Shown here piece by piece: positions 13,668 to 22,607 of a DNA stretch of 32,000 bases. A program made the translations under genes and the position numbers. A model generated the notes under the pieces. That model did no database searches. It saw only the letters and a list, made by a program, of their open reading frames with translations, and was not told the DNA's origin. Numbering within the stretch: position 1 is the first letter of the stretch; every line of letters starts with the position of its first letter. The stretch comes from an uncultured Methanobacteriaceae archaeon (GTDB taxonomy: Archaea; Methanobacteriota; Methanobacteria; Methanobacteriales; Methanobacteriaceae): the NCBI GenBank assembly GCA_963831915.1, contig CAWHRV010000008.1, positions 245,788-277,787 on the forward strand. The letters are read 5' to 3'.

Positions 13668-14804
13668 ATGAAGATACTTTTTATAGGGGCACGTCTATTT
13701 GAAGATGTAGCACCATACACAAAAAATCTTGCGATTAATAGTATTTTAACAGAATCTAACCCCGAATCTCCTAACCTTAAACTTGCAGATTCCTACCATA
13801 TTGTTTCAAGGGGGATGGATGAACCAATGCAAATTGCAATCAATGAGGAAGTTGATGGTGTCGTGCCATTAATTGGCATTGATGAACCCCTTGTAGAGAT
13901 TGCAATTATGAAAGAAAAGTTAGAAGAGGATTATGGAATACCTGTAATCGCTTCTGGTATTTCAGCTGCGTCTACATGTGCTGACAAATTTAAGGCTAAA
14001 GAATTTTTCGTTGAAAACCAGATTAAAACTCCAAAATTCTTTAAAATATCTAAAAATGATTACCATAATGTTTTACCCAAAATGGATAATCAAATGCCAA
14101 TAGTTTTGAAACAGACAAAAGGTCAGGGAGGATCAGGAGTTAATATAGCATCTTCCATAAAAGATATGGAAAAATATATTAATGAATTTGAATCTGGTAT
14201 TGCAGAAAGATTTATCGAAGGATCTGAGGTTTCAATTGAAGTATTGAGGTGGAATGGTAAATCTGTCCCATTAGTTCCAGTTTATAAAGGAGAAACCACC
14301 ATTGAAGGCATCCATCCTCTTAAGAAGATTAAAAAAGCCCCATTAGAAATAGATGGTATTAATAATTCTAAAAACAACCGGAAAATCCAAGAAATTGCTG
14401 TTAAAATTGCAGAGAATATTGGTTTAGAGGGTACTGCAGATATTGATATTATTTATGACTATGAAAATAATGAAAATAATGTAATTGAAGTTAACGCCCG
14501 ACCTAGTGGCACACGGTACATCACATGGGCTACTACGGGCATAAATATCATGCACGAACTAGTTAACATGGCTTCTGGAAAATGGAATGCATTGAAACTT
14601 AAAAAAAGTATTAAAAATTACTCTGGCATTGAGATACCGGTTGGAAATTATATTTCGCAAAAAAATAGTCAGATCATGCACGATTTTTCTGACGAAGCTT
14701 CTTGGATAATCCACGGACCTGAAAATCATCAACGAATAACTATACGTGGATCATCCATGGGAAATGCGGTTAAAACTGCAAAAAAGCTCGAAATATGGGA
14801 ATAA
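13668..14804 (+). CDS. Stand-alone ATP-grasp ligase, CarB/Ddl-like (pseudomurein cluster member)
   Basis: ATP-grasp elements: PIVLKQTKGQGGSGVNIA (Lys plus Gly-rich loop), ERFIEGSEVSIEVL, and DIDIIYD...VIEVNARPSGT. The last compares with [11 protein letters not shown] in the carB of this same window. GTGAT Shine-Dalgarno lies before the ATG. Confidence 0.8.
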   Translation: MKILFIGARLFEDVAPYTKNLAINSILTESNPESPNLKLADSYHIVSRGMDEPMQIAINEEVDGVVPLIGIDEPLVEIAIMKEKLEEDYGIPVIASGISAASTCADKFKAKEFFVENQIKTPKFFKISKNDYHNVLPKMDNQMPIVLKQTKGQGGSGVNIASSIKDMEKYINEFESGIAERFIEGSEVSIEVLRWNGKSVPLVPVYKGETTIEGIHPLKKIKKAPLEIDGINNSKNNRKIQEIAVKIAENIGLEGTADIDIIYDYENNENNVIEVNARPSGTRYITWATTGINIMHELVNMASGKWNALKLKKSIKNYSGIEIPVGNYISQKNSQIMHDFSDEASWIIHGPENHQRITIRGSSMGNAVKTAKKLEIWE

Positions 14805-14954
14805 AAAAAATTAAAAAATTCTATATAGTCCATGACAATATAGAATAAAGAAATTGATTTATTAATAGTTAAGATAGAAAGGTTCATATTAGAATAATTG
14901 TATTTAAAATCCATAAATGCAAATCATTACAATAAAACAATTATAGGTGGTATC

Positions 14955-16028
14955 TTGAGCAATATCCAGTTAGAAGTTTTCATATTCTTACTCGCATTCC
15001 TATCAACAGCGCTTTTCACCCTGTTCGTAAGGAAGGTGTTGAAATATGCAGACATCAAAGACAATCCAATAGTCACAGAACACAGCCACAAAGCAGGCAC
15101 GCCCACAATGGGAGGCCTAGCTATACTCATGGGAGTTCTTCTTCTTGCATGTGTTTATTACACAGATAAAAACCTTATATTAACCGTAATAATTATGCTG
15201 ACCGCCGGAATTGTTGGATTGATGGATGATCTAATTGGTCTTAAAACTAAGGAAATTCAAAAAGTAATAATGAATATCAGCCCTAATCCTGTGGAAATTG
15301 GCAGATTGACTCTTAAAAAGGGTGAAAATGCAAGAGTTACAACACCTAAAGCGAAAAAGGACTTGGAATATCTCCTAAAAAATAATTTAGTAGAGATAAT
15401 AGGTGAAGCCCCAATAAAAAGTGAGGTAAAGGAAAACGAAAAAATTCTGGCACAGATACTTGTTTCACTTTTCCTGATAGCTTCAGGGGCGGTTGGTGCT
15501 TCGGTATTAGGATTTAATATTGGCATATTTATAATTCCCGTAGTAATATTCTGTATAGTTGGATCAATCAATTCAGTGAATCTTATTGATGGAATGGATG
15601 GACTGGCAGCAGGAATAATTGCTATAGCCTCTGTTGCATCGGCATTATTTGCATTATCAACGGGAAATATTGGTGGAGCAGTACCATTTATAGTTCTTGC
15701 AGGAGCATGCTTCGGATTTCTTGTTTTCAATAAGTATCCCGCAACCATATTCATGGGTGATACGGGATCCTTTGCACTTGGAGCAGGTTACATGACCGCT
15801 GCATTTCTGGGCGATGTATTTTACTTTGCCGTGATTGCGATTGCTGTACCTATACTTTCTGTTGCTGTGAGCCTCTTACATAGAGCTCATGTGATTAAAC
15901 TCCCTGTAGAACCACTTCATCACACATTACACTATAAAGGATTATCAGAGAAGAAAATAGTTTTACTTTACTGGTCAGCCACCATTATTGTCTGTGCTGC
16001 AGCATTATACGGATACAGCCTACTTTAA
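14955..16028 (+). CDS. MraY-like polyprenyl-phosphate sugar-phosphate transferase (glycosyltransferase family 4)
   Basis: Polytopic membrane protein. DD motif LMDDLIGLK. NSVNLIDGMDGLAAG. FMGDTGS. PVEPLHHTLH matches the MraY HHH-region position. The longest ORF starts at TTG 14898. I prefer the in-frame TTG 14955 because AGGTGG (14944-14949) lies just upstream and TM1 begins there. Confidence 0.85.
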   Translation: MSNIQLEVFIFLLAFLSTALFTLFVRKVLKYADIKDNPIVTEHSHKAGTPTMGGLAILMGVLLLACVYYTDKNLILTVIIMLTAGIVGLMDDLIGLKTKEIQKVIMNISPNPVEIGRLTLKKGENARVTTPKAKKDLEYLLKNNLVEIIGEAPIKSEVKENEKILAQILVSLFLIASGAVGASVLGFNIGIFIIPVVIFCIVGSINSVNLIDGMDGLAAGIIAIASVASALFALSTGNIGGAVPFIVLAGACFGFLVFNKYPATIFMGDTGSFALGAGYMTAAFLGDVFYFAVIAIAVPILSVAVSLLHRAHVIKLPVEPLHHTLHYKGLSEKKIVLLYWSATIIVCAAALYGYSLL

Positions 16029-16054: not shown

Positions 16055-17551
16055 ATGAAGGATATCACAGCAGCATATTTGGCAAAAAAGGTGAATGGAA
16101 GATTAATAGGAACTGAAAAACCTATAAAAGGAATTTTTACCTTTCTAAACAGTGCTGAACCCGGAGATGTGGTTGTTAGACACTGGATTGACGGCCAAGG
16201 AGTTAAAATGGCCTCTGATAAAGGCGTTTCATGTCTTGTAACTCAAAACATCCGAGGAGATGCTATTGAAATAGCTGAAAAGCTCGAATTACCCATTATT
16301 ATAACTCCTAAAATAGAATTTGCCAATGCATTCGCATTAAAATGGGCAATAAAAAACTTTGCAAAAAATTCCATTCGTGTGGTTGTAACGGGTACAAATG
16401 GTAAATCCACAACAGCAAACATGATATACACTATATTAACAAAAGCAGGATATTCTACATACACCAATACCGATGCTAAATCTGAGTTTAATACATTAAT
16501 AGATCCTGTTATTGCAAAACAGGTCGCAGAGTTTGAAAAAGTAAATAAGAAAAAGATTCAAGCCATGGTTGTTGAGGTTTCAGAAGTTCAAGGATGGTTG
16601 GACAAATTAATGAAAGATCATGCACAACTCATGACCTCCGCAGTAGAACCTAATGTCATTGTACTGACAAATGTAGGTTTGGATCATATTGGTTTAGTTA
16701 ATTCTATCGAAGAAACCTACAATGAAATATATGGTTCATTAAAAGGAATATTCCCTGTTCAATCAGATGAAGTTGAGGATAATAAATTAAATGATGTTTA
16801 TGCTGTTTTAAATTCAGATGATCCACTTTTGAAGGACATGGGGAAACTGGTGGAAAATCAGGGCAATTTTAAACTTTTATACTATGGTAGTAAAGTAAAT
16901 GAATCATTATTCCCTGATGTATCCCTTCAATCTGAAGGTATATACTTGAAGGATAAACCATTCTTAAAAACAGAGGAACTACCATTTAAGAGTAAACATT
17001 TCATTCAAAATACAATGGGAGCAATAGGTGCTTGTTTGGCATTAAATATAGATTTAGATGTTATAAAAAATGCTGTATCATCCTATATACCCCTTAAAAG
17101 AAGGTTCACAGTGCTTGGAAAAGATCCACTAATAATTGATGATTTCGCCCATAACCCTGATGGAATAATTGCAACAATAAAGAGTGGTTCAAAGATGTGT
17201 GAAGGTGTTCTTTACATTGTATTCGCCATCAGAGGCTCAAGGGGAGAATCTATTAATCATTTAAATGCTGAGGCAGTTGTTGAAAGCCTTGAAGGTGTTG
17301 ATCATCATATTATTGTTACGAGCAGTAAAGATGTGGTTGATAAAGCAAACGTAGTAAAATCTGTAGAAAAGAATGTGGTTCTTAAAACATTGACGGAAAA
17401 TGGGTTAAAATATGTATTTGAAGAAAAACTGTATCTTGCATTGGAGTACAGTGTAAGAAATGCAAAAGAAAAAGATACTATACTTCTTCTTGGTGCCCAA
17501 GGAATGGACCCTGCCAGTGAAGCACTGGAAAAAATATACAAAGATATTTAA
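16055..17551 (+). CDS. Mur-ligase family peptide ligase, paralogue A (MurE/MurF-like N-terminal domain)
   Basis: P-loop VVVTGTNGKSTT. VVEVSE (Mg Glu). VLTNVGLDHIG. IIDDFAHNPDG. The N-terminal 90 aa (LAKKVNGRLIG...PGDVVV...GVSCLVTQ) resemble the MurE/F substrate-binding domain. Confidence 0.85.
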   Translation: MKDITAAYLAKKVNGRLIGTEKPIKGIFTFLNSAEPGDVVVRHWIDGQGVKMASDKGVSCLVTQNIRGDAIEIAEKLELPIIITPKIEFANAFALKWAIKNFAKNSIRVVVTGTNGKSTTANMIYTILTKAGYSTYTNTDAKSEFNTLIDPVIAKQVAEFEKVNKKKIQAMVVEVSEVQGWLDKLMKDHAQLMTSAVEPNVIVLTNVGLDHIGLVNSIEETYNEIYGSLKGIFPVQSDEVEDNKLNDVYAVLNSDDPLLKDMGKLVENQGNFKLLYYGSKVNESLFPDVSLQSEGIYLKDKPFLKTEELPFKSKHFIQNTMGAIGACLALNIDLDVIKNAVSSYIPLKRRFTVLGKDPLIIDDFAHNPDGIIATIKSGSKMCEGVLYIVFAIRGSRGESINHLNAEAVVESLEGVDHHIIVTSSKDVVDKANVVKSVEKNVVLKTLTENGLKYVFEEKLYLALEYSVRNAKEKDTILLLGAQGMDPASEALEKIYKDI

Positions 17552-17817: not shown

Positions 17818-19224
17818 ATGAAATGTGTAATAATTGGCGCAGGTAATGCAGGACGTCCCGCTGCAAGAATCCTTAACCACATTGGGAATGAGGTCATTTT
17901 AACAGATCAAAAACTCTTTGAAGATTTCCCACTGAAAGTTCAGAAAACCCTTGAAATAATGGAAAAAGAGGGAGTTAAACTTTTATTGAACCCCGATACT
18001 CTTTTTGAGTTTGAAAATATTGATTCAGCATACATATCACCCACCATACCTGAAAATTCACCAATCAGAGATTATTTAAAGGACAATAATGTCAAAATAC
18101 TGGACAATGAATACATTTCTACCATAATAAACGATCTTCTGGAACTGGATGTAATAGGAATTACAGGCACCCTTGGAAAAACCAGCACAACCCATATTAT
18201 ATCTGAAATATTCAAACAGGCAGGTTTCAGCGTCTGGACTTGTTCATCCAGGATGGGAAACCTTTTAAGCGAGGTTATTGTTGACGGGATCGTTAATGGG
18301 CTTCATATTAAAAATAACATTGCAATTCTTGAACTTCCACACGGAACTTCGAGGTTAATGTCTCAAGTTAATCTTAAAGTCGGTATAATAACCAACATTT
18401 ACCCTGACCATTTAGATGAATTCGATTATTCCATGGAGAAGTATGTAGCCCGTAAATTATTCATAACAAATTCTAGTGAAATTTTAGTTTCAGGAATCCA
18501 GTGCAAGGAATATATCGAAGATTTAAGGGACAATACAATTTATTATTGTACAAACAATGAGTTTTGTAATGTTAATGGAAAATTGGATAATGGAAAATTG
18601 GATATTACATATGATATACCCTCAATGAAACTAGCTGGACAATTTGAAACGCCATTTAAATTATTGGGATACTACTTTGAAAATTCCATCGCAGCTGCTG
18701 CGGCAGCAATCGCATATGGATTAGACAATAACTCCATAAAAAAGGGATTAAAAAGTTTTAAAGGAATTGCCGGCCACATGGAGTACATTGGAAATTTTAA
18801 AGGCAGACAAGTGCATTTTGATGCAGCATTTGTACCTGAAGGATTAATTAATACTCTTGAAAGCTTTCGGACTAAAGACTTGGTTGTTCTCGTTGACAAC
18901 CCAGACAGTACAAACCCAAGGGACAAGTTCAAGGTAGGAGAAGTTGTTGGAAGATATGCTAAAGTTATAATATGCAGCGGATACAATGAAACAACTAAAA
19001 AACCAGATATTGAAGCTGCAAATAAAGTTATTCAAGGAGCTCAAAATTCTAAAGCGATTAAAATCGCTGTGGAAGATATGATAACTGCTGGTAAATTATC
19101 AATTAAATATTCAAATCCAGGTTACACAATTTTACATGTTGGTCCTGGAGCCATAACCAATTATGAAGATGTTAAATTCAAAATGTTGTCCGGTATTGAG
19201 GAAGGATGTAAAAAATATGAGTAG
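17818..19224 (+). CDS. Mur-ligase family peptide ligase, paralogue B (MurD-like Rossmann N-terminus)
   Basis: N-terminal [20 protein letters not shown]-loop [34 protein letters not shown]. The DxxHNP motif is degenerate (FDAAFVPEG). Confidence 0.82.
18574..18603 (+). repeat. Perfect in-frame 15-bp tandem duplication inside ligase B
   Basis: AATGGAAAATTGGAT occurs twice back to back and encodes [10 protein letters not shown]. Confidence 0.95.
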
Positions 19225-20782
19225 TACCGAAGGAAAAAACATTAAAGAAGCTAAAACATCAACTCCCAATCCTGATGTTTACGGGGTTGTTGGTGTCTGT
19301 GGTGTGGTGGGAAACATGCTGGCGAGAATGTTAATTGACCACAACTGTAAGGTACTAGGAACAGACATAAATGGGAAGGATAACTGTGAATACATTTATA
19401 CACTACAGGACTACAATTTACCCCTCTATTTATCAGAACATCCTGAAGCGTTTTTTAAAAATTCAACATTTATCGTGCCCCCTCCAAGTCTTGGCGAAGA
19501 TTCAGAACTTTGTAAAAAAATAAAAAATTATGGATTAGATATTTTAACTGTCGATGATTGCCTTAAAAAATTCAAACCTGAAAAGCCCGTACTATGCATA
19601 ACTGGTACCAATGGTAAAACTACCACCACCACACTTTTAAAACATATATGCCGATCAGCTGGTTTAAATCCTAGTGAACATGGTTTCAGAAATTTACAGG
19701 GAAATATTGATTATATACCTCCATTACAGGCCAGATTAAATGGAGATGTGGCAGTTCTCGAGACAGGAACATTTGGAAATAGTGGAGATATAAAAAAATT
19801 GGTAGAAAGGTGCGAACCAGACTGTGGAATCCTAACCAACATTAACCCTGATCATCTGGATAAAAATCATGACTTCATGAACTACGCAAGAATTAAGGGC
19901 GAATTTGTCGATTACTTCAAAAACAAAAAATTAATAGTAAATTCAGATGATCCTACTGCATTTGGCCTTGTAGATCAAAACACTGATTTTGTTACGTTTG
20001 GAATAGATTCTGACACATTTAGTACTGTGCTAAAAAGATGTTGGTGTGGAAGGGATATCGAATTAAGTGAAACAATTACTGGTTCAGGAGTTTACAGTTG
20101 TGAATGTGGGTTAAATAGACCCGAACCAGACTTTCTTGCAACGGAAATCGATGAAACCCATGGAAGGTTTAAACTCAGAACACCCGAGAGTGTTCTGGAT
20201 GTTGAGATGAAATTAATTGGACTTCATAATGTCTACAATACCATTGGTGCCATTGCAGCTGCAAGAGAATTCTTTGAAATTCCCTATGATGATATAATCC
20301 GTGCAGTTGAAAGTTTTGAGGGGGTTCCTGGTAGAATTGAATATCTATTCAGCCAAAATGGAATGGATATAATCATTGACTACGGTCATAACCCTGCAGG
20401 AATAGAAACTGTTCTTAGGGAAATAAAAAAGGTTTATAATCATATCACCGTAGTAATTACAGTTTCTTCAGAATCTGGAGAATCTGGAGATAGGGAAATA
20501 CTCAAAAAAGCCATGGAATTAGCTGATTTCATTGTACCTGCATCCTTTGCATCGAGGATGGCTGCAGAAAAACATGAGGAATATATTTCTTCAGGAAAGA
20601 TCATATTCACAGACATATCTTTGAAGAAATTTCAAAAAGGTACACTTGGAGCAACATCAGATCAGGTATTAGAAGGCCTAAAAAAAGGTTTAGAGTGTAA
20701 TACTTCCGTTTTAGTATGTCTTGGGGAAGCTGCATTTAAATACAAAGAAAATATTATCAAATTGAATGATTTGAAGTCATAA
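19217..20782 (+). CDS. Mur-ligase family peptide ligase, paralogue C (MurC/D-like N-terminus, internal four-Cys insertion)
   Basis: N-terminal [17 protein letters not shown]-loop [44 protein letters not shown] prefer the ATG at 19217, which gives an 8-nt overlap ATGAGTAG with the ligase B stop and has GAGGAAGG upstream. The longest ORF starts at 19163. Confidence 0.85.
20471..20488 (+). repeat. In-frame 9-bp tandem duplication inside ligase C
   Basis: GAATCTGGA occurs twice and encodes ESG-ESG. Confidence 0.9.
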
Positions 20783-20913: not shown

Positions 20914-21348
20914 ATGTTCATAAAAATTAGGAGAGATACTTTAATAATTTTATTACTAGCCTTCATGCTCATTGTATCTGGTAGAGTCATGACTTACATG
21001 TCATATGCATCTTCCACAGATGTGGATAAAGGAGTTCAAATTTCAGGAGTTATAATAAAGGGAAACGATATAATCCCCCTTGATTCTATAAAAAATAGTT
21101 TAGCTAATGTTGGATTCAGATCAGGAAGTTATATACAGGGAGATACTTTGGTTACAAGTAAACGTAAAGTTCCCTTGAATGAAGCCATTGAAAATGCTAA
21201 ACAAGCTGCGATGCTTACAACAATACCCGGAACACAGATCACACCAATTGTTGCAGCAGATGTGCAAGTGGATAAAGCAACAGGAATAGTTACTGTAAAT
21301 GTCATTGAAGACTTTTCAAACATCAAAATTAAGGGGCTGAATACATGA
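20914..21348 (+). CDS. Bitopic membrane protein, 144 aa, with a POTRA-like ectodomain (function unknown)
   Basis: AGGTGA Shine-Dalgarno (20904-20909). N-terminal basic stretch then one hydrophobic helix (LIILLLAFMLIVSG). The remainder has a beta-alpha-alpha-beta-beta-looking pattern (ISGVIIKGNDIIPLDSIKNSL ... GIVTVNVIE). The stop overlaps the next start. Confidence 0.7.
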   Translation: MFIKIRRDTLIILLLAFMLIVSGRVMTYMSYASSTDVDKGVQISGVIIKGNDIIPLDSIKNSLANVGFRSGSYIQGDTLVTSKRKVPLNEAIENAKQAAMLTTIPGTQITPIVAADVQVDKATGIVTVNVIEDFSNIKIKGLNT

Positions 21349-22607
21349 ACCGGCCAAAATTAATGTTGTTTTTAATACTTGTATTTACCATTGCTACGGT
21401 TGTTAACACATCATCAGCCACAATGAATGTCGTGGTAATTACAGATCCCACAGGACAAGATCCTAACGGTGCAGCAGCAGGAAGTCAGTCATGGGCTGAA
21501 AACATGTTCCAGTCAACCTTCATACTATCAAAGGAAAAAAACTTCGCTGTTCTATCAGGAGGATATGGAAACGAAACACCCAGACTCGGTGCTATTGTGG
21601 AAACATTAAATAGACTTGAGTCAGGTGCTACTGCAGCGGATGCTGCATCAGCAGCCAGTGGTTTCTCTGGTATAAGGATTATGGTTGGAGGGCCAAAGAT
21701 AGGTGCTGCTGTAGGTGGTTACTTCAGTGCATATGTGGTAACAGTGGCTGCTGACAATACAATTACAGTAACTCCATATGAAAGTGGTCTGGCCACACTT
21801 CCACCGGGACAAAGGGGGGCAATAATACATTTGAGAAACACCCCAGGTAACCCACAATATGGTACAGCTGATGCTGTACGTAAAGATACAGCTATTATGA
21901 TGGGTAAAATGATAAGGGACGGTTATCCTGCCACAGAAATTGTTGGTGCGGCATTTGAAAATGTTGCCAAGAATGCTGGTGAAAAACATGGTGGGGGTGC
22001 AGTGAATCTGGTTTCCGGAATAACTACAGGGGATATGTTCACACCAACTGCATTAAATACAACCGGTTTTTCAATGGATGAACCATACAGTAAGACTTGT
22101 CCGGTTGATGGATGGAGTATTGCTTATCCTGCAGCAGAAAACTATGAAACATGTCCTAATGACGGGACTGCCCTCAAAACTGTATACGCTTATCAAGCTC
22201 TTACAAATGCAATTACAGTGACTGGAAACAGTACATCAGTAGCAGTTTATGGTAGCGATGCACCAGGAATTGCAGAAACCACACAGGAAATAGTAGTAGC
22301 CTCTGTGAAAAAACATGGCTACAGCAGTACCGAGATAGCTAAATCTATTAACAATGCAATTGGTAATGGACTGCTTGTAGGTGTTAATTACGTAGAAGCT
22401 AAGGACATTAATGTAAAGGAAAGCTCCAAAGCAGTTGGTGTTTACTATAAAGCACTGCCGGATAATAGATCATCACCACCATGGAATTTACCAATTAGTT
22501 CCTCAATTTTAGATATTTTAGGGAATATGCAGACGGCTATAGGATTGATATTAGTTATCTTGGTCCTCTTCAGAAGCACTCTAATATCTTCGTTCCTTAA
22601 AAAGTAA
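21345..22607 (+). CDS. Exported protein, 420 aa, Ala/Gly/Thr-rich with a C-terminal membrane anchor (function unknown)
   Basis: ATGA overlap with the upstream gene. Signal-like N-terminus MNRPKLMLFLILVFTIATVVNTSSA. C-terminal hydrophobic helix AIGLILVILVLF followed by basic residues. Several N-x-S/T sequons. A CPxDG...CPNDG pair provides the only two Cys residues. Confidence 0.72.
   Translation: MNRPKLMLFLILVFTIATVVNTSSATMNVVVITDPTGQDPNGAAAGSQSWAENMFQSTFILSKEKNFAVLSGGYGNETPRLGAIVETLNRLESGATAADAASAASGFSGIRIMVGGPKIGAAVGGYFSAYVVTVAADNTITVTPYESGLATLPPGQRGAIIHLRNTPGNPQYGTADAVRKDTAIMMGKMIRDGYPATEIVGAAFENVAKNAGEKHGGGAVNLVSGITTGDMFTPTALNTTGFSMDEPYSKTCPVDGWSIAYPAAENYETCPNDGTALKTVYAYQALTNAITVTGNSTSVAVYGSDAPGIAETTQEIVVASVKKHGYSSTEIAKSINNAIGNGLLVGVNYVEAKDINVKESSKAVGVYYKALPDNRSSPPWNLPISSSILDILGNMQTAIGLILVILVLFRSTLISSFLKK

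Follow-up and report, generated by a model that had tools for sequence, protein, structure and literature searches.

Mfer764, a conserved protein of the pseudomurein gene cluster, is predicted to adopt an Ntn hydrolase fold with an invariant threonine at its predicted signal-peptide cleavage site

For the cytoplasmic and membrane stages of pseudomurein synthesis, candidate or tested enzymes are at hand in the pMur ligases and the MraY-like proteins, whereas none is available for the polymerisation and cross-linking that take place outside the cell. The polymer contains gamma and epsilon isopeptide bonds, and a gamma-Glu-epsilon-Lys isopeptide has been proposed as its cross-link (PMC4592898). 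The archaea that produce pseudomurein reportedly lack homologues of the enzymes by which bacteria cross-link murein (PMC10117817), and the transglutaminases invoked for its cross-linking are so far guesses (PMC10117817, PMC11915815). Gamma-glutamyl transpeptidation is carried out by N-terminal nucleophile (Ntn) enzymes of the GGT type, and CapD anchors a polymer to the cell wall by this chemistry (PMC3173206, PMC12191348). Mfer764 was treated as a pseudomurein-specific hypothetical protein (PMC10117817, PMC11915815) and was described, together with Mfer763, as "devoid of known domains" (Lupo et al., PMC11915815). Here, we analyse the Mfer764-family gene (positions 21345..22607, + strand) of an uncultured Methanobacteriaceae archaeon (assembly GCA_963831915.1), present in a stretch of 32,000 nucleotides of contig CAWHRV010000008.1 (positions 245,788 to 277,787 of the forward strand), hereafter called the window. 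Structural models suggest that the mature protein begins with an Ntn hydrolase fold, whose putative nucleophile, Thr26, is invariant in the family.

The gene is an open reading frame (ORF) of 420 codons plus the stop, with an ATG start, and its product matches the NCBIfam model NF053642, "Mfer764 family protein", with 696.9 bits (cut-off 560, E 6.6e-210), model positions 1-393 being aligned to residues 25-417. The orthologue from Methanopyrus kandleri reaches 571.3 bits against the same cut-off. A Pfam scan of the window protein returned no family match. A preliminary description of this DNA, made from the sequence without database searches, had reported no recognisable family for the protein, which is accurate as far as Pfam is concerned and has to be amended for NCBIfam, where the protein is a clear member of NF053642. 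The family is already catalogued, with neither a fold nor a function assigned to it in the database or in the papers cited above.

We obtained AlphaFold2 models of the full-length protein, from an alignment of 56 sequences (predicted local distance difference test score, pLDDT, of 79.9), and of residues 26-246 alone (pLDDT 88.8, predicted template modelling score 0.89). In the full-length model, residues 26-221 form four strands, two helices, four strands, two helices and one strand, and the remaining elements are the signal helix, a small beta unit with the remnant of a zinc ribbon, an alpha/beta region (residues 282-367) and the transmembrane helix. The order in the domain-only model is four strands, two helices, six strands, two helices and one strand. 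Comparison of the full-length model with the Protein Data Bank (PDB) by Foldseek gave nine matches with E <1e-3, all to Ntn hydrolases (circularly permuted Taspase-1 and the DUF1028 protein 2imh), followed in rank by Anbu, proteasome and HslV. The domain model gave 12 matches below the same threshold, again all to Ntn hydrolases, with template modelling (TM) scores up to 0.59; the best was the circularly permuted Taspase-1 (E 8e-6, TMq 0.59, probability 1.00), HslV was matched with TMt 0.53, and Anbu, proteasome and the Ntn domain of GlmS were also retrieved. The superposition on the DUF1028 protein 2imh has a root-mean-square deviation (rmsd) of 3.9 A over 205 columns (TM 0.54/0.55). These matches suggest that residues 26-246 (21420..22082, +) adopt the four-layer alpha-beta-beta-alpha sandwich of the Ntn hydrolases, one of the catalytic folds that the preliminary description had named when it proposed a structure prediction followed by a Foldseek search.

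There was no bacterial murein transpeptidase or transglutaminase-like protein among the top 50 Foldseek matches, and no match to a penicillin-binding protein (PBP) transpeptidase, YkuD or transglutaminase-like family in Pfam and NCBIfam at E up to 1, or in Pfam at E up to 10. Likewise, the search of viral structures (BFVD) yielded nothing at E <1e-3, and so gave no link to the lysins of methanogen viruses.

An invariant threonine located both at the start of the mature chain and in the first strand of an alpha-beta-beta-alpha sandwich is the arrangement that defines the Ntn hydrolases, and position +1 of signal-peptide cleavage sites is not normally conserved. Residue 26 of Mfer764 (codon 21420..21422, +) is a threonine in 207 of 207 orthologues, from Methanopyrus to Methanobacterium. 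It directly follows the signal-peptidase site as predicted and opens strand 1 in both AlphaFold2 models, the first 10-residue block having a pLDDT of 95. The best structural match, the circularly permuted Taspase-1, comes from constructs that start with the nucleophile Thr234 (bioRxiv 10.1101/2020.11.26.400622), so that in Mfer764 the elements follow one another as they do in a nucleophile-first Ntn chain. This collinearity is indirect support for an equivalence in position between Thr26 and the nucleophile of solved Ntn hydrolases, as judged from the order of elements. On the same basis, two invariant glycine runs, G72-G73, where strand 4 ends, and G216-G218, ahead of strand 9, would be placed like the oxyanion-hole glycine of HslV and the proteasome and the GG loop of GGT and the asparaginases. 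From invariance and position in the models, we infer that Thr26 may be the catalytic residue. Our search of a library of papers found no link between pseudomurein and Ntn hydrolases, and the assignment of an Ntn fold to Mfer764, with its invariant threonine at the signal-peptide site, appears to be new.

The predicted Sec signal peptide (residues 1-25; 21345..21419, +) is composed of a basic N-terminus (MNRPK), a hydrophobic core of 15 residues and a c-region of small residues (NTSSA) that is followed by the threonine. In the 207 orthologues possessing the N-terminal extension, the prepeptide has a median length of 25 amino acid residues, Ala occupies position -1 in 206, and Val, Ala or Ser is present at position -3 in all. 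The sequence (V/A/S)-x-A before Thr26 is the classical signal-peptidase pattern and cleavage is predicted there, in agreement with the signal-like N-terminus and the possible cleavage site after SSA that had been noticed in the preliminary description. We also considered a lipoprotein signal, which was rejected since the cysteine, where present, comes after the threonine, and the window protein has a methionine at that place.

Hydropathy analysis identified exactly two hydrophobic segments, at residues ~4-25 and ~387-419. The second one corresponds to a transmembrane anchor (~386-409) and a basic tail (410-420), encoded together at 22500..22604 (+). The tail has a median of four Lys/Arg and no Asp/Glu residues (R410...KK in the window protein), and it is therefore predicted to be cytoplasmic, with the body of 360 residues outside. 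The predicted topology is that of a type I membrane protein: a cleavable signal peptide, a large ectodomain, a C-terminal transmembrane helix and a basic cytoplasmic tail. The term "tail-anchored" in the preliminary description was correct about the C-terminal hydrophobic helix with its basic tail and is loose for a protein of such predicted topology. In this C-terminal segment G393, G400 and R410 are invariant, and Q396, T397, A398, L406, V407, F409 and S411 (in the stretches QTA and LVLFRS) are conserved to 90% or more, an unusual conservation for a transmembrane helix, which hints at packing against another membrane protein.

The Mfer764 gene is confined to pseudomurein producers, Methanopyrus included. 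We retrieved 697 database proteins matching the window protein, the best 120 of them with 67-93% identity, and a relative is encoded in 222 species genomes, of which those with names belong nearly all to Methanobacteriales; with such numbers a chance ORF is out of the question. Among 1.84 billion representatives at 50% identity, a profile search retrieved only two full-length Mfer764 clusters, one of them that of M. kandleri, the remaining hits being fragments and chimeric contigs, and no relatives outside the family. Within Methanobacteriales the Mfer764 proteins share 60-93% identity, and in the comparison of the window with M. kandleri the value is 45% for Mfer764, 46% for MraY, 39-41% for the Mur ligases and 38% for Mfer763. 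Across the Methanobacteriales loci, conservation in the cluster is highest for Mfer763 (median identity 72%, the top value) and next for Mfer764 (68%), followed by MraY (65%), pMurC (54%), pMurE (52%) and Ddl (49%). An alignment of orthologues in search of invariant residues, as had been proposed in the preliminary description, revealed about 20 polar residues that are invariant in Methanobacteriales and Methanopyrus (T33, D34, S47, S49, T58, S62, R80, R111, H162, N165, N169, R179, R191, D192, E213, N221, D230 and K250).

Several observations weigh against an Ntn assignment and against an active enzyme. Some proteins with the Ntn fold are not enzymes. None of 56 Mfer764 members matched an Ntn family in Pfam at E up to 10, the PDB sequences searched with a profile gave no match at the same limit, and hhalign comparison of the Ntn-domain profile with GGT, IaaA and HslV from Escherichia coli (NC_000913.3) and with 2imh gave probabilities <1%, the sole local alignment, to 2imh, being out of register. 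Since none of the sequence methods ties Mfer764 to Ntn families, the fold call rests on predicted structures, for which the TM scores in Foldseek are moderate (0.43-0.59) and the rmsd is high for most matches. Moreover, PP2C-type phosphatases, which are likewise four-layer sandwiches, are present lower in the Foldseek lists (E 4e-3 to 3e-2). In what concerns the signal peptide, a single orthologue has a proline at position -1, and Lupo et al. (PMC11915815) list OG0001472, which we infer from gene order to be Mfer764, with signal peptide "Other" and one transmembrane segment, which would conflict with a cleavable signal peptide.

Nevertheless, on balance we regard it as probable, by a modest degree, that Mfer764 is an active Ntn ectoenzyme acting on amide bonds of pseudomurein peptides at the outer face of the membrane. 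The preliminary description had already proposed an exported, membrane-tethered enzyme acting on pseudomurein; the restriction of the gene to pseudomurein producers, its position in the gene cluster, the constraint on its sequence and the predicted Ntn fold are consistent with that proposal, and nothing indicates the glycan polymerase that was among the activities suggested.

More tentatively, we hypothesize that Mfer764 could be the transpeptidase that cross-links pseudomurein, a Thr1 Ntn enzyme unmasked by signal peptidase, instead of by cutting itself, and complexed with the POTRA-like Mfer763. In the mechanism that we propose for the Ntn ectoenzyme in general, the Sec signal peptide would be cut off after Ala25, and, as is usual for Ntn enzymes, the hydroxyl group of Thr26, with its own free amino group as base, would attack the amide bond of the substrate, forming an acyl-enzyme ester. 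The ester would be resolved either by the amine of a neighbouring stem peptide, resulting in transpeptidation and cross-linking, or by water, with trimming or cleavage as the outcome. The enzyme would be kept at the site where the lipid-linked precursors emerge by its conserved transmembrane helix and by the co-translated Mfer763. As there is no adenosine triphosphate (ATP) outside the membrane, cross-links have to be made at the expense of an amide bond that is already there, which is what transpeptidation does; Ntn enzymes of the GGT/CapD type proceed in this way with gamma-glutamyl donors.

Mfer764 may instead be only a hydrolase, either a carboxypeptidase that cleaves the terminal Ala off the stem peptide, or an endopeptidase or amidase by which the sacculus would be opened for insertion of new material, an explanation that we consider rather unlikely. 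Most characterised Ntn enzymes are in fact hydrolases, the best structural matches (Taspase-1, HslV and proteasome) are proteases, and tethering near the growing wall would also suit an enzyme that makes space. In the literature, moreover, transglutaminase-like proteins have been proposed for cross-linking (PMC10117817, PMC11915815). By itself the fold does not tell a hydrolase from a transpeptidase; autolysins and trimming enzymes, however, are usually redundant and fast-evolving, whereas Mfer764 has a fixed position and is more conserved than the Mur ligases.

The gene immediately upstream encodes a protein of the Mfer763 family (20914..21348, +; NCBIfam NF053641, 237.7 bits against a cut-off of 170), with an N-terminal hydrophobic segment and a POTRA-like domain. 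The POTRA-like label given to it in the preliminary description fits the phmmer match that we obtained to the POTRA domain of BamA (6j09_A, residues 76-123), which is weak (E 0.012). In bacteria, the dcw cluster encodes, next to its mur genes, the bitopic POTRA protein FtsQ/DivIB, of which Mfer763 is reminiscent in its layout, being a membrane-anchored POTRA protein whose gene comes after those of the Mur ligases. It is conceivable, if unlikely in our judgement, that Mfer764 is a non-catalytic scaffold with an Ntn fold, which would form with Mfer763 a membrane-anchored extracellular complex organising export or polymerisation, comparable to a divisome scaffold of the FtsQ/DivIB type. Such a role would be in line with the translational coupling and constant adjacency of the two genes, with the weak POTRA match of Mfer763, with the almost invariant transmembrane helix, whose G-x6-G pattern suggests packing against a membrane protein, and with the existence of inactive Ntn-fold proteins, as the alpha subunits of the proteasome. 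A scaffold, however, leaves unexplained the invariant threonine exactly at the signal-peptidase site in all 207 orthologues, as well as the dense invariant Asp, Arg, His, Asn and Ser residues and the glycine loops of the Ntn domain.

Another class of enzyme built on a four-layer sandwich, for example a PP2C-like metal-dependent phosphatase acting on a lipid-pyrophosphate carrier, seems very improbable. RsbU (3ke6), 3pu9, RsbX (3w40) and the SpoIIE-like 3rnr do appear in both Foldseek lists, with E from 4e-3 to 3e-2, and several Asp residues of Mfer764 are invariant, but these structures are ranked below all Ntn matches and superpose more poorly (TM 0.25-0.45, rmsd up to 18 A), no PP2C sequence motif and no Pfam PP2C or SpoIIE match was found, and the invariant N-terminal threonine would be unexplained. 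A variable surface protein of the adhesin or S-layer type, structural and without a role in wall synthesis, is the alternative that the preliminary description had itself set against its proposal, and although its surface location and a composition rich in Ala, Gly, Thr and Ser could suggest it, it is ruled out by the strong conservation of Mfer764 (60-93% identity within Methanobacteriales, 45% to Methanopyrus, two full-length clusters only among the 1.84 billion representatives) and by its fixed place in a biosynthetic cluster, so that we give it next to no credence.

Mfer764 is the final gene of the pseudomurein cluster of the window, which comprises genes for a Ddl-like ATP-grasp protein (13668-14804), an MraY-like protein (14898-16028), pMurE (16055-17551), pMurD1 (17818-19224) and pMurC (19163-20782), all on the + strand and each with an NCBIfam equivalog match above cut-off, followed by Mfer763 and Mfer764. 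This arrangement is the "gene cluster 2" of Subedi et al. 2021 (PMC10117817), also called cluster A. Mfer763 is immediately upstream of Mfer764 in 79 of 80 related loci, in agreement with the same report (PMC10117817), and in most of the 80 loci the two genes overlap or are a few bases apart. M. kandleri has an identical array, with genes for a Mur ligase, an ATP-grasp protein, MraY, pMurE, a 149-residue protein and the Mfer764 orthologue of 416 residues. Mfer764 closes the cluster in the window, in the 80 related loci and in M. kandleri.

In M. kandleri AV19, a polytopic membrane protein of 369 residues is encoded one nucleotide downstream of the Mfer764 orthologue (L084 10253-11362). It has no Pfam or NCBIfam match, is probably OG0000796 of Lupo et al. 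and has no orthologue in the window; it could be a membrane partner, for example a polymerase or flippase. In the window, a DUF356 gene (PF04009; 22717-23070, +) follows Mfer764, as it does in nearly all 80 Methanobacteriales loci, where it is usually succeeded by aMBF1 (- strand) and PAN (+ strand), an arrangement that M. kandleri does not have. As for pMurC, the ORF as listed overlaps pMurD1 by 62 nt (19163-19224), and the NCBIfam pMurC model begins at residue 40 of the ORF; Met19 (nt 19217) is a likelier start, with which the overlap is 8 nt.

Some entries retrieved in the searches with Mfer764 deserve mention. A bin labelled "Methanomicrobiales archaeon" (JBNGDB010000017.1) contains a gene whose product is 68% identical to Mfer764; the bin is most likely mislabelled or contaminated, a genuine pseudomurein gene in Methanomicrobiales being the less likely explanation. 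P0180 (E 4e-5) is a repeat protein rich in Thr and Val and was taken as a compositional match. In P0174 and P0169 only the C-terminal anchor of the family is kept (LP..IL.ILGSIQTAVG..LV.FRSRLLKSF), fused to unrelated N-terminal parts; these could have arisen as assembly chimeras, which is evidently the case for P0126, P0135 and P0136, or the anchor may be reused as a targeting or interaction module.

The Ntn domain is followed by a degenerate zinc ribbon (residues 247-281; 22083..22187, +). The window protein has exactly two cysteine residues, Cys252 (CPVDG) and Cys270 (CPNDG), which are 18 residues apart. The preliminary description had rightly noticed that the only two cysteines sit in a duplicated CP-x-DG motif, and its spacing of 19 residues is corrected here. 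In 56 aligned orthologues, positions 252, 255, 270 and 273 are occupied by four cysteines in 21, by CCCD in 10 and by CDCD in 19, the window protein among these, and six orthologues have no cysteine; the four-cysteine pattern is found in Methanopyrus and Methanobrevibacter, and Cys252 and Cys270 are always lost jointly. Weak Pfam zinc-ribbon matches below threshold were obtained only in four-cysteine members (for instance DZR in 17 members), and the window protein (CxxD...CxxD) does not have the full set of four ligands. Judging from these patterns, the CP-x-DG pair is a decaying, dispensable CxxC-x14-CxxC zinc ribbon, for which the expression "half of a metal site" used in the preliminary description was a fair one. 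A catalytic or essential role of the cysteines was rejected, given the six orthologues that lack both and their invariable loss as a pair. The pMurC protein of the window also has an insertion, CWCG...CECG, which matches the archaeal-specific zinc ribbon of the Mfer336 crystal structure. Two proteins of the cluster thus have zinc-ribbon insertions, that of Mfer764 being in decay in the Methanobacterium lineage. Between the ribbon and the anchor lies a C-terminal alpha/beta ectodomain with a linker (residues 282-385; 22188..22499, +; pLDDT ~55-88 in the full-length model), for which no sequence match was obtained in Pfam or the PDB.

At the nucleotide level, the ATG of Mfer764 overlaps the TGA stop of the 144-residue ORF at 20914..21348 in a four-base ATGA, and an AAGGGG ribosome-binding motif is present 8 nt upstream of the start. 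The protein is composed of 11.7% Ala, 10.0% Gly and 9.0% Thr, and is also rich in Val and Ser. The GC content of the gene is 0.416, against 0.357 for the whole window. The extent of the ORF, its ATGA overlap, the richness in Ala, Gly and Thr and the visibly higher GC content are all as the preliminary description had reported. The GC excess is confined to codon position 2 (0.473, against 0.31-0.37 in neighbouring genes), and GC at codon position 3 is 0.28, the same as in the neighbouring genes; it is therefore attributable to the amino acid composition, rich in Ala, Gly, Thr, Ser and Pro, and not to a foreign origin. Horizontal transfer was on this ground rejected as source of the high GC content.

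The predicted catalytic fold and a specific candidate nucleophile, Thr26, make of Mfer764, which is with Mfer763 one of two hypothetical proteins conserved universally in the cluster, a testable candidate for the missing extracellular chemistry of the pseudomurein wall. If Mfer764 were indeed the transpeptidase, Archaea would have a solution for cross-linking of their own, relying neither on penicillin-binding proteins or L,D-transpeptidases nor on the transglutaminases put forward to date. Should Mfer764 prove to be an essential ectoenzyme, methanogens of the rumen and the gut would offer in it an accessible and specific target, and the final assembly step of murein-like walls would be shown to have evolved independently in Archaea.

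Among the known systems, Taspase-1 and the type 2 asparaginases are the best structural match and share with Mfer764 a threonine at the start of the first strand, whereas no sequence similarity to them was found, nor any Pfam Asparaginase_2 match. The natural Taspase-1 and asparaginases are self-cutting alpha-beta proenzymes, of which only the engineered permuted form starts with the nucleophile; Mfer764, in contrast, is a single chain without an alpha-subunit, in which Thr26 comes right after the signal peptide, and it has in addition a zinc ribbon, an extra domain and a membrane anchor. DUF1028 (PF06267; 2imh, SPO2555) is a single-chain family with the Ntn fold that starts with Met-Thr and gives the best superposition on the Mfer764 model. 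The first 22 residues of 2imh align ungapped to residues 26-47 of Mfer764 (T...TG...AA.GS), with a shuffle p of ~0.03 that is suggestive only, and the same 22-residue shuffle test against HslV, GGT and IaaA gave nothing. The DUF1028 proteins differ from Mfer764 in their length of ~220 amino acid residues, in having no signal peptide in the aligned 2imh chain and neither zinc ribbon nor anchor, and in giving no significant profile match.

HslV, the proteasome beta subunit and Anbu have the same order of secondary structure elements as Mfer764 and a threonine at position 1 of the chain, with Foldseek probabilities of 0.9-1.0; they are, however, cytoplasmic ring-forming proteases, no sequence similarity between them and Mfer764 was found, and nothing indicates that Mfer764 forms rings. 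With GGT and with CapD of Bacillus anthracis the resemblance is a functional analogy only: CapD is an Ntn enzyme with a threonine nucleophile that acts outside the membrane, transfers a gamma-glutamyl acyl group to an amine and attaches a polymer to the cell wall, and gamma-glutamyl isopeptide bonds are present in pseudomurein. Unlike Mfer764, GGT and CapD are two-chain, self-processing enzymes, and they are not among the top 50 structural matches, nor was similarity to E. coli GGT detected. The PBPs and L,D-transpeptidases, whose fold and nucleophile are unrelated to those of Mfer764, occupy the same place in the pathway as the one proposed here, that of an extracytoplasmic, membrane-tethered transpeptidase that works through an acyl-enzyme and is encoded with mur and mraY genes.

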